Source: a virus (lineage: Duplodnaviria; Heunggongvirae; Uroviricota; Caudoviricetes). From it: DNA of 60,889 nucleotides. Below are positions 3,030-20,205 of this stretch, in pieces. The DNA is taken from positions 302,446 through 363,334 of the IMG/VR virus record IMGVR_UViG_3300028833_000055. One strand, given 5' to 3'. Position numbers and translations under genes: made by a program. A model generated the notes under the pieces. That model saw nothing but the letters and a program-made list of their open reading frames with translations, was not told the DNA's origin and made no database searches. Every line of letters begins with the position of its first letter. Position 1 is the stretch's first letter.

Positions 3030-3298
3030 TACTCCTTCTTTTTACCGTTTCCGTTGAGATTCCAGTTCAGGCTCATACGGAAGATAAGCATCGTGACTAT
3101 GCTAAGCACCACCGTCTGCATGTAGCTGAGTTCCGGCAGCCCGAACAATCCGGGCATAAGCCAGTTCCAGAGCGGCCATACGACCAGTGCCGTCACAAAG
3201 CTGTAGATGCACGTGACTATGACGCCTATCACCATTATCACCAGTATCTGGAAAAGCTTTCCGAAGAAACCTCCTTCGTTATTGTAGTTGTAATGCAT
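3029..3298 (-). CDS. small membrane protein
   Basis: Two hydrophobic segments. Confidence 0.7.
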   Translation of the reverse strand: MHYNYNNEGGFFGKLFQILVIMVIGVIVTCIYSFVTALVVWPLWNWLMPGLFGLPELSYMQTVVLSIVTMLIFRMSLNWNLNGNGKKKE

Positions 3299-13393: not shown

Positions 13394-15370
13394 TTATTTG
13401 TAGTCAGAGACAGGCCAGAGGGGTTCCTCTTCATTCCGCTTCATTCTCTCTCCGGTACGGACTTTCTTGGGATTCAGTATGTCCCGGCAGATTTCCGACA
13501 GGTCTTTCAGGTCCTTGTCACGCCCGTAAGTCTTCTTTGCGTCAAGTATGTGCTTCACCGTGGCCAGACGGAACCCTTCGACAAGTGAAATCTCCGTATC
13601 GAACTCCTCGTTCCCGTCAAGAACCCAGATATTGAACTCCACGTCCTTCCATCTGAATATGAACGGCTTGTGTTTCACTCCCTTGAAGGTGTCATCGGAT
13701 ATCCTGTAGAAGGTGTTGCCTCCGTGAATCTTCGTTATGGTCTGCAAGTCACGGTCAAGCTCCTCGTTTCCCCTTATCACGATGTCCACGTCGTGTATCT
13801 CACGCTCCGGCGGAAGCATTCCGTGCTTGAAAAGGGCGATGCTTCCCGTTATCATCACGTCTTTCCTGTCCAGACGCATCATATCCGTGAACTCCGCTAT
13901 CGTCCGGAGCAGACTTCTGCACGTCCTCTCGTTCATCTCTTCCATCGGAGGACGGGTGGGGCCGGTCTTGTGTGTTTCGTGCTTCCTTTCGAAAAATTTC
14001 ATCCTTGTGTCAGACACAAGGTTCCTTACGAACCCCTCGTCTATGCTCTCACGGATGGTAGATTCGGCACACGCCTTCTGCATCTCGGCCGTCATCTCGT
14101 CGAGCTTCTTGATGAGTTCCGAATATCCGAACTTACGGTTCCTTACATCCATAAGGAAGTCACGGTCACGACCGGTACGGTCGAGTATGAGGCCTTCGCC
14201 CTTCGCTATCTCCGTACACATCGCCACGTTCCTGAAGGAATGGTACATATTCTTGCAGTCGTACTTCATATCGGGGTCTCCGGACTTCTCACCCTCGAGG
14301 TTGGACTCGTATCTCGCCTTGTTACGCTTGCTCTTCCACTCCTCGTACTCCCTGAACTTCTTGCAGTGGCTTCCGTACCCCTCGCTGTTGTAGGTCATCA
14401 TACATACCGGAGTCTCGTCCTTGTTGGTGGAGCAGAGCCTTACCGTGTTGGATGTTCCGTCCTGGTTTATGATGCCGCAGTGTTCACCGTAGGGCGTACT
14501 TGTCTTCTCCCTCATATAGTCGACTATCGTGTATGTCTCGCCGTCTATGATGACGCTCACCTCCGGATAGCGGAGGTCAACCTTGCACAGTGCGTCCACC
14601 AGTTCCTCTTCGGTAATCTCCCCGCTGTTCCTTCTTGCGTATATCTCGTCCTTCTCCTCCAGAGCCTTTCCGACCCTTTCGTCGAACTGCTTTTCGAAAT
14701 GTCTTCTCATAAAGCGGAAGAACCTGCTCTTCGCTTGCATCTCCTCGTCAAGTGTCGTTCCGGCGAGACGGAAGTGCTGGGCGAAGTCGTAGTACATAAG
14801 GTAGCAGTCCTTCATATTGATGAGGTTCACAAGTCCACAGCAGTCCTGACGGAGGTCGTACCTGCCGAGCCACTCCTGTATGTTCACGCTTCCCTGTCTT
14901 CCATCGAAGGTGTAGCAGAAGTCGAGTGGAGTCATACGCTTCATATCCTCCATCTCCCAGTGTATCTTCTTGTTCTGGCCCTGTGCCTTCCTTATCTGTG
15001 AGACGGCGTATCCTCCGAATGGCATGAACGCCGCCTTCGTGACGAACTCGTCACGGTGCTTTCTGATTTCCTTGAAGAGCGGGTGCTCGAAGAGGACAAA
15101 TTCATCCGGAACGAAGAAAGCCTCTATGACGGCGGGGTTGGAAGTCATCGCCAGACGCATAAACTTGCCGAGCTCCCACCACTTAGTGTCGTTCTTCTCG
15201 TCGGACACCTCTTCGGTTATGTCGAAGTCGAAGTCCGGCGGACAGATGAACACGCCGCCCGTGTCGGTGTCGCTCTCCGGTGTGTCGGTGTGGTAGAGCT
15301 TGCTGCCCCTCACGTATTCGAAAAGGAGAAGTCCCCTTTCCCTGATTTCTTCAAATGTAAGTTTACTCAT
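13394..15370 (-). CDS. Pol-beta superfamily nucleotidyltransferase (YcgL/RlaP-like) fused to a second NTase-like domain
   Basis: N-terminal GSKLY.TDTPESDTD and NP..IE; C-terminal ITGSIAL...HDVDIV. Confidence 0.8.
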   Translation of the reverse strand: MSKLTFEEIRERGLLLFEYVRGSKLYHTDTPESDTDTGGVFICPPDFDFDITEEVSDEKNDTKWWELGKFMRLAMTSNPAVIEAFFVPDEFVLFEHPLFKEIRKHRDEFVTKAAFMPFGGYAVSQIRKAQGQNKKIHWEMEDMKRMTPLDFCYTFDGRQGSVNIQEWLGRYDLRQDCCGLVNLINMKDCYLMYYDFAQHFRLAGTTLDEEMQAKSRFFRFMRRHFEKQFDERVGKALEEKDEIYARRNSGEITEEELVDALCKVDLRYPEVSVIIDGETYTIVDYMREKTSTPYGEHCGIINQDGTSNTVRLCSTNKDETPVCMMTYNSEGYGSHCKKFREYEEWKSKRNKARYESNLEGEKSGDPDMKYDCKNMYHSFRNVAMCTEIAKGEGLILDRTGRDRDFLMDVRNRKFGYSELIKKLDEMTAEMQKACAESTIRESIDEGFVRNLVSDTRMKFFERKHETHKTGPTRPPMEEMNERTCRSLLRTIAEFTDMMRLDRKDVMITGSIALFKHGMLPPEREIHDVDIVIRGNEELDRDLQTITKIHGGNTFYRISDDTFKGVKHKPFIFRWKDVEFNIWVLDGNEEFDTEISLVEGFRLATVKHILDAKKTYGRDKDLKDLSEICRDILNPKKVRTGERMKRNEEEPLWPVSDYK

Positions 15371-15933: not shown

Positions 15934-15942
15934 AATAGTTTG

Positions 15943-15974
15943 TTTTTTACAAAGATACTATTTATTTTCGAAAG
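15943..15974 (-). promoter_or_regulatory. promoter (-7 TATCTTTG) at trailer end of the CRISPR array
   Basis: 32 bp identical to the copies at ~350 and ~18937. Confidence 0.75.
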
Positions 15975-15979
15975 TCTTT

Positions 15980-16543
15980 CAAAAATCCATCGTATAAAAC
16001 ATAGTGTCCAACATCTGTTTGATTTCGTTGAAAACAAATTTAATAGTTGTATCCACCGTATAAAACATAGTGTCCAACATCTGACAACGGTTTTATAATT
16101 CCCTCTTTTTCGTTGTATTCACCGTATAAAACATAGTGTCCAACATCAGTTGAACCGTCTTTGCTGTGTGTCAGAGTGTTGTATCCACCGTATAAAACAT
16201 AGTGTCCAACATCAGGGTGTTTTTGGACTTCTATGCAATCCAAGTTGTATCCACCGTATAAAACATAGTGTCCAACATCCACGCCGTTACGACCTAAAAA
16301 GTCAGTTTCGTTGTATCCACCGTATAAAACATGGTGTCCAACATCCTTTCGGAAGGTTTCTCCTAGTTCTCCTTCGCTGTATCCACCGTATAAAACATAG
16401 TGTCCAACATCGCTGATATGCGTAACGCAGGACTTGAAGTCGTTGTATCCACCGTATAAAACATAGTGTCCAACATCAAGTTTTCCACCTTCTGCGATAT
16501 ACTTCTCGTTGTATCCACCGTATAAAACATAGTGTCCAACATC
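15980..16543 (-). CRISPR. CRISPR array: 36-bp repeat GATGTTGGACACTATGTTTTATACGGTGGATACAAC, 8 full repeats + 1 degenerate, 8 spacers of 30 bp
   Basis: Repeats start (+) at 16046, 16112, 16178, 16244, 16310, 16376, 16442, 16508; degenerate trailer 15980-16015; single SNPs in three repeats. Confidence 0.98.
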
Positions 16544-16571
16544 TTACTCTGTCTAATTTCTTTTATTCCAG

Positions 16572-18926
16572 TTACTTATTACATTCATTCTCAATAAAAT
16601 TTCCGTTTTCATCGAGCTTTCCATATATTGCACCGAGAGTTTTCTTCAATGTGTTGAAGACACTTACATTGGAATTTTTCTTGTAGCACTCCTTCAAGTC
16701 AAACGCTGGTCTGTTATACATTTCCGTGCCGTCCTTTGTCCTTTTGAGGAACTTGTCCCTCAAAGTCTCGTTTTCGAAAATATACTTGATATTGTTGGCG
16801 GAGTTGGTGTCGGCGTTCATCCCGTTTACAAATGACTCCTGTTCTGTCCTCACGCTTTCCTTGGGGGCGACTATGTGTTCCTTCTTCTCCTTTCCCGTCT
16901 TCTCGTCCACCTTGACTGTCTCGATATAGTAGAGGGAGTGTGTCCTGCTGTCGGTCTGTGAGGTGTACGGGGACGGTACATATACCATCTGAATGTCCTT
17001 GTAGTTGGAGAGCTGGACGAACTTGTCCTTTATGCTCGCCCACCTCAGGAATTTCGGTACGAGGTTCTTGAACCTGTTCCTTCCACGGGCCTTCTCTCCC
17101 ATATCGCTGTATTTCACATCCGTGAGCATTCCGTTTCCGTCATATTCGAAAGAGTAGTATGACTTCGGTATCTTGTTCGCCTTCAAATAGGCGGTGACTT
17201 CGCCTTCCGGCTTCCCTTCGAGCTTGTGTCCTTTCAGGAGACCTCCGGTTGACGGTATTCTCCTTGCCTTCATCTGGGAGCTCTCCAGATATTCGAGTGC
17301 AACGGTGTCGTATCCGTTCCTTATGAAAAGGTTGACGGCGTATGTGACTATGTTGTCCCTGCATCCGATGATGTCCTTGTACACGTTGTTGAGCTTTCCG
17401 AGAATTTCCTTTCCCTTTTCGGTCTCGTTGAACTCGTCCTTGTACTTTATCTTATTCTCCTCGGACAAATCGCCGCTTCCTGCACGCTCGCTGTCATATT
17501 TGCCGAGCATCTCGTAGTACTTGTCCTTCAGGATGTAGGCGGACTTTATCTTTGCACGGAGAATCTTGTTGTAGTTGATGTAGTTTTCCGTATCTGTGTC
17601 GGATGTGCCTTTTCTCAACTTGTCGAGAACCCTCTCTATGGCGGCCTCCCTCTCTATGAGTTTCTTCTCCGCTTGCACCTTCAGTCCGTCCACGCTGTTT
17701 TCCTTCTTCTGCTTCACGATTCTCTCGTAGAGGCCGTCGTACTCTATTATGCCTATGTTCACGCCCTCGGCGAGTTTCTCGTATTTTTCAAGTTCGGTGG
17801 CGTTGAGTGTCTTACGGAACCCCTCGTCCTTCAGGAGTTCCTTGTATATGTTGAGGAAACCCTTCATATCAGATGCGTTGTCGCTTACGGATATGATGGA
17901 GTGCTTCATATTCATATCCACGCCTATGTATTTCTTCGCCTCCATACCGTTCTTGCTGAACTTCACCGGAGCGGAGATGCACACGTAGAGGTTGTCACCG
18001 TCCACAACGAAGACTTTGGAGTCACCGGATTTGTCGCCACAGATGTCCACGAGGTTCACACGCCTTCCGTTAACCACCTCCACCACACGCCTGTGTCCAA
18101 GAAGATGTATTTCCTTCAGTTTCTTGCTGACTTTCATAGTGTAGCCGGTGAGACCGTCCTCCTTTATGTCGGCTTTCTCCAATGTGACGGAGAACGAATT
18201 GGATTTGCTCCTGTTGCATCCGCCGAACTTCCTTATGTCATCCAGTACCAGACTTTCCCTGTACTCGTTAATCTTGTCGGTGTTGGTGGAGAAGTATTCC
18301 ATAAGGCACTGGAGCCTTTCCGCCTCTTGTGTCTTGCCTTTCTCGTTCAGATACTTTATGGTTTTTTCGAAATCACACTTGAACTCAAGTCCACGCTTCT
18401 CCATCTCGAAGACGGTCTGTCCGAGTATGGTCTCCTCATCGTCTTCCGCCGGATTGAACTTCTTGTACTTGATACCGGTTTTCAGGGTAGCGAACTTCGT
18501 TCTAATATTGGAGACTACGTTTTTCAAATATCCTCCCCTTACATATGACGACTTGCAGAATCCGAGTATGTTTCCCGTATTGCCTTCGGGATTTAATGCC
18601 TCCACATAGCGTTCGATGGAGTGGTCGATAAACATCGACGACGCCGCCTTTGTGAACATCTTGTATAGCGGAAGGTCTTTGTTTTCTTCTTTTATCAGAT
18701 ACTTGTAATACTCGTTCTTACGGTATTTTTCCGGTATGAAGCTCGCCACTTCGCCCCACGTCATATCCGTGAGTCTCTCACAGAGGAATGTTGTCAGCCT
18801 CTTGTAGTATTCCGAGTATTCGACTGCGGCCTTTCTGAATAATTCGACCGTCTCCTTGTCCGTTTTGACCTTGAACTTGAACGACTTCTGAATGTCACCC
18901 TCCCCCTTCTTCTTACTATTGTACAT
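16572..18926 (-). CDS. compact type V CRISPR effector, Cas-lambda-like (784 aa)
   Basis: RuvC-I YIGVDMNMKH, RuvC-II VALEYL, RuvC-III NADTNSANNI, plus VPSPYTSQ; TGNILGF, KFGGC.R and GCRDNI match my recollection of phage Cas-lambda; abuts array; start MYNSKK follows promoter. Confidence 0.9.
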   Translation of the reverse strand: MYNSKKKGEGDIQKSFKFKVKTDKETVELFRKAAVEYSEYYKRLTTFLCERLTDMTWGEVASFIPEKYRKNEYYKYLIKEENKDLPLYKMFTKAASSMFIDHSIERYVEALNPEGNTGNILGFCKSSYVRGGYLKNVVSNIRTKFATLKTGIKYKKFNPAEDDEETILGQTVFEMEKRGLEFKCDFEKTIKYLNEKGKTQEAERLQCLMEYFSTNTDKINEYRESLVLDDIRKFGGCNRSKSNSFSVTLEKADIKEDGLTGYTMKVSKKLKEIHLLGHRRVVEVVNGRRVNLVDICGDKSGDSKVFVVDGDNLYVCISAPVKFSKNGMEAKKYIGVDMNMKHSIISVSDNASDMKGFLNIYKELLKDEGFRKTLNATELEKYEKLAEGVNIGIIEYDGLYERIVKQKKENSVDGLKVQAEKKLIEREAAIERVLDKLRKGTSDTDTENYINYNKILRAKIKSAYILKDKYYEMLGKYDSERAGSGDLSEENKIKYKDEFNETEKGKEILGKLNNVYKDIIGCRDNIVTYAVNLFIRNGYDTVALEYLESSQMKARRIPSTGGLLKGHKLEGKPEGEVTAYLKANKIPKSYYSFEYDGNGMLTDVKYSDMGEKARGRNRFKNLVPKFLRWASIKDKFVQLSNYKDIQMVYVPSPYTSQTDSRTHSLYYIETVKVDEKTGKEKKEHIVAPKESVRTEQESFVNGMNADTNSANNIKYIFENETLRDKFLKRTKDGTEMYNRPAFDLKECYKKNSNVSVFNTLKKTLGAIYGKLDENGNFIENECNK

Positions 18927-18936
18927 AATCTGTTGT

Positions 18937-18968
18937 TTTTTTACAAAGATACTATTTATTTTCGAAAG
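18937..18968 (-). promoter_or_regulatory. promoter for cas gene/array
   Basis: TATCTTTG core 18944-18951, ~18 nt before ATG. Confidence 0.75.
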
Positions 18969-18971
18969 GAC

Positions 18972-18998
18972 AAAGAAAAACCGGAAAAAATTCCGGTT
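18972..18998 (-). terminator. metK terminator
   Basis: AACCGGAA-TTTT-TTCCGGTT then TTTCTTT. Confidence 0.65.
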
Positions 18999-19002
18999 CC
19001 CT

Positions 19003-20205
19003 CTATTCCATTTCGAAAATTTTTCTGATGTCTTCAACCAAATCCAAATCCTCCCACGGGAAGTACTTGATGCCGTCCTTCACATAGCTCTTCCTCCCGA
19101 AGTGTCCGTACTTGGCGGTCTCAAGATAAATCGGGTTGAGGAGGTTGAGCCTCGTTATCATACCGTGAGGCGTGAAGTCGATGTTCTCCATAAGGCGTCC
19201 GGCGATTTCTGCATCGCTCATTCCGATGTTGCACTTTCCGTGAGTGTCTATGAAGACCGAGAGGGGCTTGGCCATACCGATTGCATACGAGACCTGTATC
19301 GTAACCTCGTCCGCCACTCCGGCCGCCACAAGGTTCTTGGCCACGTATCTACAGAAGTAGGCCGCACTCCTGTCAACCTTCGACGGGTCCTTGCCCGAGA
19401 AGGCTCCGCCTCCGTGAGGACACTTGCCCCCGTAGGTGTCGACTATGATTTTTCTTCCGGTCAGACCGGTGTCCCCGTGAGGTCCGCCTATTACGAAGCG
19501 TCCGGTCGGGTTGATGAACAGCTTGAAGTCGTAGAACATATCCGAAATCCTCTTCGGAAGTTCCATCCTTACACAATGCAACGCTTCCTGAACCCAGTCA
19601 CCGAGAGCCTCGTTCGAAAGTTCCTCGCAGTGCTGCTGTGAGACGACTATGGTGTCTATCTTCTCGGGCTTGCCGTCTTCACCGTACTCTATAGTCACCT
19701 GTGACTTGGCGTCCGGTCTCAACCCGATTTCCGGATATCCCTTTCTCAGCCTTTCGAGCTGACGGAGTATCATATGGGAGAGCATTATTTCAAGTGGCAT
19801 GTACTCTATTCCGTCCTTGACTGCATATCCGAACATAATCCCCTGGTCTCCGGCACCCTGCATCTCCTCCTTCTGGCGGGACACGCCCATATTGATGTCG
19901 GGGCTCTGCTCGTGTATGGTGTTTATCACCGCACAGGAGTTTCCGTCGAAGTAGAGTTCACCGTTGTCGTAGCCGATGTCGTTGATGGTGTTACGCACCG
20001 TCTTCTGCAAGTCAACATACGCTTCGGCGGTAACTTCGCCCGAGATGACAACCAGTCCGGTCGTCACAAGTGTCTCACACGCCACGTGGGCGTTCTTGTC
20101 CTGTCTTATTATTTCATCCAGTACGGCGTCCGAAATCTGGTCGGCCACCTTGTCGGGATGACCCGATGAAACGGATTCCGACGTAAAATATCTCTTATCG
20201 CTCAT
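19003..20205 (-). CDS. metK: S-adenosylmethionine synthetase
   Basis: FTSESV..GHPDK, GAGDQG, GGGAFSGKDPSKVDRS. Confidence 0.98.
   Translation of the reverse strand: MSDKRYFTSESVSSGHPDKVADQISDAVLDEIIRQDKNAHVACETLVTTGLVVISGEVTAEAYVDLQKTVRNTINDIGYDNGELYFDGNSCAVINTIHEQSPDINMGVSRQKEEMQGAGDQGIMFGYAVKDGIEYMPLEIMLSHMILRQLERLRKGYPEIGLRPDAKSQVTIEYGEDGKPEKIDTIVVSQQHCEELSNEALGDWVQEALHCVRMELPKRISDMFYDFKLFINPTGRFVIGGPHGDTGLTGRKIIVDTYGGKCPHGGGAFSGKDPSKVDRSAAYFCRYVAKNLVAAGVADEVTIQVSYAIGMAKPLSVFIDTHGKCNIGMSDAEIAGRLMENIDFTPHGMITRLNLLNPIYLETAKYGHFGRKSYVKDGIKYFPWEDLDLVEDIRKIFEME

Follow-up and report, generated by a model that had tools for sequence, protein, structure and literature searches.

The window analysed here, a stretch of 60,889 nucleotides, is the end of a 363,334 bp virus record that is 96% complete and has a terminal overlap of 145 nt. 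On its minus strand lie a cas-lambda effector gene (16572..18926), recognized by homology, alignment and structural modelling and encoding a protein of 784 aa from its ATG (P0001), a leader of 28 nt measured from the stop codon to the first repeat (16544..16571), and a CRISPR array (15980..16543) with nine counted repeats of 36 nt, the last of them eroded, and eight spacers of 30 nt. The unit is flanked by genes for an RlaP-family nucleotidyltransferase (658 aa; 13394-15370) and MetK (19003-20205); an RlaP gene is found beside cas in another Cas-lambda locus (L015) too. The phage genome has 38 tRNA calls and a tmRNA, and a second short repeat, in three copies with a period of 75 nt, is located at C1:223883-224050 of the genome. 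Most of the cas-lambda locus is present in sequencing runs of sheep and bovine gut, which come from three studies. Comparison of MetK gave no pointer to the host of the phage. The carrier is best read as a jumbo phage of sheep and cattle gut with Bacteroidales as its putative host; known Cas-lambda systems are likewise carried by jumbo phages of the animal gut.

Promoters of the Bacteroidota follow the consensus TTTG ... TAnnTTTG. A motif of this type (TTTG-N19-TAnnTTTG; 18932..18974, minus strand), with TTTG at 18974-18971 and TAnnTTTG at 18951-18944, precedes the effector gene and sits behind an intrinsic-terminator-like hairpin predicted at 18976..19001 (minus strand), which closes the upstream metK. 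This predicted promoter belongs to a phage promoter motif with about 35 copies across the genome. A second copy (15938..15974, minus strand) abuts the eroded trailer repeat and is placed to drive the downstream gene. The cas-array unit is bracketed by these two near-identical copies (15938-15974 and 18932-18968) and could move as a cassette through recombination between them. Read joints that skip 2.97 kb were rejected as signs of excision, their sides being only 22-27 nt long and lying on the repeated promoter. The sequence TTTCGAAA is enriched 12-fold in the phage genome. RNA-library contigs from two studies cover the cas-lambda gene and break at the repeats; DNA carry-over is possible in these libraries.

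Cas-lambda1 was reportedly introduced by Al-Shayeb et al. in 2022. In a phmmer search of the PDB, P0001 matched CasLambda 8DC2 (E 1.7e-107) and Cas-lambda2 (E 1.6e-98), and no other match was significant. The AlphaFold model of P0001 (pLDDT 88.9) aligned with Cas-lambda2 9IZR over 717 residues (Z 43.7, TM 0.83, rmsd 2.8 A); structural Z was 42-44 for Cas-lambda, against 12.5 for the next family and 11.1 for TnpB. P0001 is nested within the Cas-lambda family tree, and its single RuvC domain has all four catalytic residues intact, D337/N339/E545/D706 aligning with D324/N326/E526/D680 of Cas-lambda2. Full-length homology, fold and catalytic residues are the same as in Cas-lambda1 (8DC2), Cas-lambda2 (9IZM-9IZS; PMC12141684) and EphcCas-lambda (PMC11576732), and sequence, fold and architecture all identify the effector as a Cas-lambda. 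Identity to the solved members is only about 30-34%, and beyond its own cluster the nearest database relatives stand at 72% (P0002) and then 42%. The earlier note, which had described a phage-borne, divergent Cas-lambda with an intact D/E/D site, was right on these points; its word 'hypercompact' is to be taken in a relative sense, as the length of 784 aa exceeds those of Cas-lambda1 (747) and Cas-lambda2 (741). The N-terminus of P0001 and the repeat did not occur in the literature searched, and the protein could be one of the orthologues of 2022 or appear in patents. In a relative, P0005 (L007:4001-6343 region), the third catalytic Asp (column 706) is Gly, as seen in the protein alignment only, and this Cas-lambda is possibly nuclease-dead.

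Eight repeats of the array are near-identical (0-1 mismatch; 16508-16543 down to 16046-16081), and the ninth (15980-16015) has six mismatches. The period is exactly 66, and all eight spacers are unique. In its MFE fold the repeat is closed by a GUUG/CAAC end stem with the G(-33):C(-1) pair described for Cas-lambda2 (PMC12141684) and a U-rich loop. At -5 kcal/mol (z -0.77) this is a weak hairpin, with a stability not above that of shuffles, and the support for the fold is homology: end pairing of the GUUG/CAAC type is also present in most relatives' repeats, and Cas-lambda1, Cas-lambda2 and EphcCas-lambda share the 36-nt repeat with this stem and loop and the order of gene, then array. Repeats in the relatives' arrays are 36 nt long, 52 of their 69 spacers measure 30 nt, and most keep the array in the same position. 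L011 and L012 depart from this order, with the array at about 2760-2990, roughly 1 kb upstream of cas and behind a tRNA. The first spacer base is G more often than composition predicts (26/69 in relatives, 5/8 here). Seven spacers are free of stops in one frame, which is not significant when compared with relatives.

At 28 nt, the leader is the shortest among 11 loci with the array behind the gene; that of P0002 is equal, and the others span 50-127 nt. The visible part of the P0002 repeat has a one-base difference from the repeat here. Of nine leaders from more distant Cas-lambda loci, seven (L004, L006, L008, L009, L013, L014 and L015) contain a boxA-like motif, GYTCTTTRACA, which ends up 41-96 nt ahead of the first repeat; it is absent from the leader here, which sets this locus apart from known Cas-lambda systems. 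Exact copies are found only twice in the phage genome, both at tRNA clusters (window 54139; genome 1506). The boxA sequence is an element of Nus antitermination, and its distribution suggests that Cas-lambda arrays are subject to host Nus antitermination, lost in the 28-nt leader. Cas1, Cas2 and Cas4 were not detected at E<=1 across the phage genome (96% complete), nor was an anti-repeat within 10 mismatches over the whole of it; there was no Rfam hit. The earlier note's picture of a gene with its own promoter, 28 nt from the first repeat, with an end-pairing repeat and neither adaptation genes nor an anti-repeat, thus stands, the promoter as a prediction and the pairing as a weak hairpin.

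A sister strain (L038), whose effector is 98% identical to P0001 with 14 amino-acid differences, carries an array of seven spacers. One of these seven is common to the array here: spacer 8 (16016..16045, minus strand), near the trailer, with two differences and no target found. Since the rest of the set is different and the shared spacer is near the trailer, new spacers enter cas-proximally without adaptation genes of the phage. Spacer turnover is evident from this comparison, which involves a single sister array because the repeat had no match in the IMG/VR or JGI scans. The simplest agent of acquisition would be host Cas1-Cas2 acting in trans, as has been demonstrated in Flavobacterium, where a VI-B array is supplied in this way (PMC8092290). 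The VI-B/II-C system of Flavobacterium columnare resembles the present one in its Bacteroidota setting, lack of its own cas1/2, spacer turnover and motif upstream of protospacers; unlike VI-B, the system here is phage-borne and probably targets DNA.

Three spacers of the array were traced to genes of integrated islands. Spacer 1 (16478..16507, minus strand) matches an island serine resolvase gene at 30/30 in the sense orientation (L028/L029); spacer 5 (16214..16243, minus strand) matches an island tyrosine integrase gene at 29/30 in antisense (L051, L056-L060); and spacer 7 (16082..16111, minus strand) matches an excisionase/AlpA-type HTH gene at 28/30 in sense (L051), so that the last two targets share one 2.7-kb contig. 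Two spacers of L038 match islands of the same kind, V5 the primase-like gene (26/31) and V7 an intergenic region (26/30). The targets of spacers 5 and 7 were predicted from translated spacers and then confirmed on DNA; on the same 488 kb, none of 150 shuffled spacers matched at <=5 mismatches. Spacers 1 and 5 match perfectly over the guide length of 16-18 nt that homology predicts after trimming. For the spacer 1 target gene, which is on a JGI contig, the best homologues in a plasmid collection are from Segatella and Bacteroides. All traceable guides are directed at a single family of integrated Bacteroidales islands, whose core they match. They are five of the 14 distinct spacers of the two strains, a figure that gives no unbiased share and does not prove specialization, because after the first match the search was steered to, and made mainly within, this island family.

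BLAST of the array against cultured phages and plasmids gave chance matches only, and a 24/30 match of spacer 1 to a T4-like contig in IMG/VR (L003) was likewise dismissed as chance. Exact seeds of spacers 2 and 4 and of GG+6 had no IMG/VR match. Self-targeting was not seen in the phage genome (best 8 mismatches), and the spacers matched none of ten other Cas-lambda phage records. Spacer 10 of another Cas-lambda phage (L006) matches C1:14313 of the present genome at 24/30, a borderline value that may reflect phage-phage targeting.

The bases directly 5' of the protospacers are CGG for spacer 1, TGG for spacers 5 and 7, and TGG for both L038 spacers. YGG is thus present at all five sites and TTR at none, and the 3' flanks have nothing in common. 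By chance, five sites would have some dinucleotide in common on one side or the other with a probability of about 7e-5. Two of the five GG flanks stem from conserved Trp and Pro codons. Among alleles of the spacer-1 site, GG accompanies only the perfect match, and the diverged ones read CGT, AAG or AAA. The array would not be its own target, because the repeat ends in AAC. For Cas-lambda1, Cas-lambda2 and EphcCas-lambda, the PAM is 5'-TTR (PMC12141684; PMC11576732), and its purine is read by Asn89 in Cas-lambda2 (PMC12141684). All five PAM contacts of Cas-lambda2 (N89, T113, F118, I237 and Q239) differ in P0001 (H102, S126, G131, T248 and E250), which was noted before any target had been found. 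At the position of the PAM-reading Asn, 39 of 46 homologues have N, the three closest outgroups among them, but P0001 has H and P0002 has Y. This change is the only strong protein signal, because columns 248 and 250 are poorly conserved. From general protein-DNA chemistry, a His reading G together with lost contacts to the thymine methyl groups would fit a GG PAM. P0001 thus appears to depart from the TTR PAM of its family and hence to be a variant within it; TTR is a trait known from the three characterized members and does not define the family. A control for TTR with relatives' spacers found nothing usable. In the literature searched, to which the founding 2022 paper did not belong, no GG-PAM Cas-lambda is reported.

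GG might instead be the motif by which a host Cas1-Cas2(-Cas9) acquires spacers for the array, with the PAM of the effector relaxed or different. Spacers taken up in trans by the Flavobacterium VI-B array are preceded by the II-C PAM in reverse-complement form (PMC8092290). The missing adaptation genes of the phage and the relatives' uniform 36-nt repeats and mostly 30-nt spacers are also in keeping with such a source. Against it, the motif of the Cas9 would have to be CCR directly abutting the protospacer, and the CC-upstream geometry of type I systems fits neither orientation. To our knowledge, Cas9 PAMs are offset by N, unlike an abutting CCR. Moreover, the altered PAM-reading Asn in the same lineage is left unexplained, and none of the five mapped spacers could serve an effector that still needed TTR. 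A host acquisition motif is therefore judged an unlikely source of the GG flank, though the strongest competitor to a GG PAM read by the effector.

The islands are integrated elements of about 10-13 kb with a core of tyrosine integrase, excisionase/AlpA HTH, primase-like and serine resolvase genes. In L048 the island is 12.8 kb long, the 3' end of a tRNA-Leu is duplicated as att at 3114/15899, and GC is 0.40 compared with 0.50-0.59 in the flanks; other copies adjoin T9SS and housekeeping genes, which are chromosomal neighbours. Cargo is variable and largely defensive by PADLOC and Pfam: type I, II and III RM, GmrSD/HEC-06, ShosTA, TmtA, PDC-S11 and a DrmD-like helicase. Islands were delimited at L048:3114-15920, L033:4226-19981 and L056:840-11362. 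With 931 integrases at E<=1e-40, this integrase-AlpA-primase-resolvase family with its defence hotspot is a large one in Bacteroidales, and several cargo genes that belong to no family are candidate defence systems.

It is also conceivable, with a somewhat lower probability than the host acquisition motif, that the phage targets the islands as satellite-like parasites or competitors, induced by it or exploiting it, and not for their defence cargo. Integrase, AlpA/excisionase HTH and primase-like genes form a satellite-like layout, and the spacers match the island core and none of the cargo. On the other side, no packaging or capsid gene was recognized in the core, and with variable cargo it is efficient to aim at the conserved genes whichever motive applies. 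Both motives are compatible with each other.

In P0001, two conserved aromatic residues with roles in Cas-lambda2 are replaced, F533 by M552 and the Y548 cap by G566, and only two of six Cas-lambda homologues cut dsDNA in one survey (PMC11576732); on both counts its nuclease activity may be regarded as uncertain. A protein that binds but cuts poorly could silence island genes in the manner of Cas12m, sparing the host chromosome a break, and the weak repeat hairpin, the one intergenic target and the chromosomal position of the targets would agree with this. Yet the four catalytic residues are intact, Met occupies column 552 in 6 of 46 homologues, the targets inside genes lie on both strands, and a lytic phage can tolerate breaks in host DNA; silencing is held to be quite improbable. 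A transposon nuclease of the IS200/605 TnpB kind, next to an array that is dead or has nothing to do with it, would share the RuvC fold (Z about 11) but is refuted by Z 42-44 to Cas-lambda, 784 aa in place of about 400, a CRISPR array in place of element-end RNA, array position kept in most relatives, spacers that turn over and match real DNA and no adjacent transposase, which leaves it next to no probability.

Under the preferred reading, in which this Cas-lambda uses a G-rich PAM, the following course is proposed. Effector gene and array would be transcribed from the phage's own promoter; the protein, by homology to Cas-lambda1 and Cas-lambda2, would bind the 36-nt repeat and trim the spacer with its RuvC site to 16-18 nt by a ruler-type mechanism, and would make staggered cuts in dsDNA beside a 5'-YGG PAM. 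Co-transcription and self-processing had also been suggested in the earlier note, which knew neither the YGG flank nor the defence-island targets. Cuts in the conserved island core would put out of action any defence cargo or parasitic function that an island holds, and new spacers, which enter cas-proximally, would be supplied by host Cas1-Cas2 in trans. As a whole, a G-rich-PAM Cas-lambda with host-supplied spacers that cuts defence-carrying islands is considered the probable explanation. The more specific version, a tracrRNA-free compact Cas12 with a 5'-YGG/NGG PAM through replacement of the conserved Asn, which imposes this PAM on in-trans host acquisition and serves a jumbo phage as a weapon against a defence-island chassis, is given about an even chance.

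The closest functional parallel is the type I-F system of phage ICP1, which is directed at PLE (PMC11656645): in both cases a phage CRISPR system aims several spacers at a chromosomal anti-phage island of the host. Unlike ICP1, the present phage relies on one type V effector, lacks an adaptation module and has a putative Bacteroidales host; unlike PLE, the islands hold defence cargo that varies, and a satellite nature is known for PLE only. The system would work as ICP1 does against PLE without being of the same type, on the premise that the islands restrict the phage. In a 2024 review, ICP1 was the only phage with a tested role of CRISPR in anti-defence (PMC11656645), and the locus offers a second candidate, of class 2 and with named targets. 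It also brings an old question within reach of tests, namely by what route an effector that lacks Cas1-Cas2 comes by spacers with its own PAM.

Type V editors mostly recognize T-rich PAMs. Purine-rich PAMs off this rule are likewise found in Cas12h1 and Cas12n (PMC11830025; PMC12216341), which are other families (Foldseek TM about 0.3 for Cas12h1); known Cas-lambda differ from the protein here by their TTR motif. The findings suggest both a weapon against host defence and a compact editor that follows a new targeting rule, and if this is true, a self-processing GG-PAM enzyme of 784 aa would open G-rich targets. P0001 and its 72% relative P0002 (L001:37-2382) differ at four of five PAM contacts (H/S/G/T/E and Y/S/Y/R/Q respectively) and form a natural map for PAM engineering. 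The residues of P0002 make a third PAM possible.
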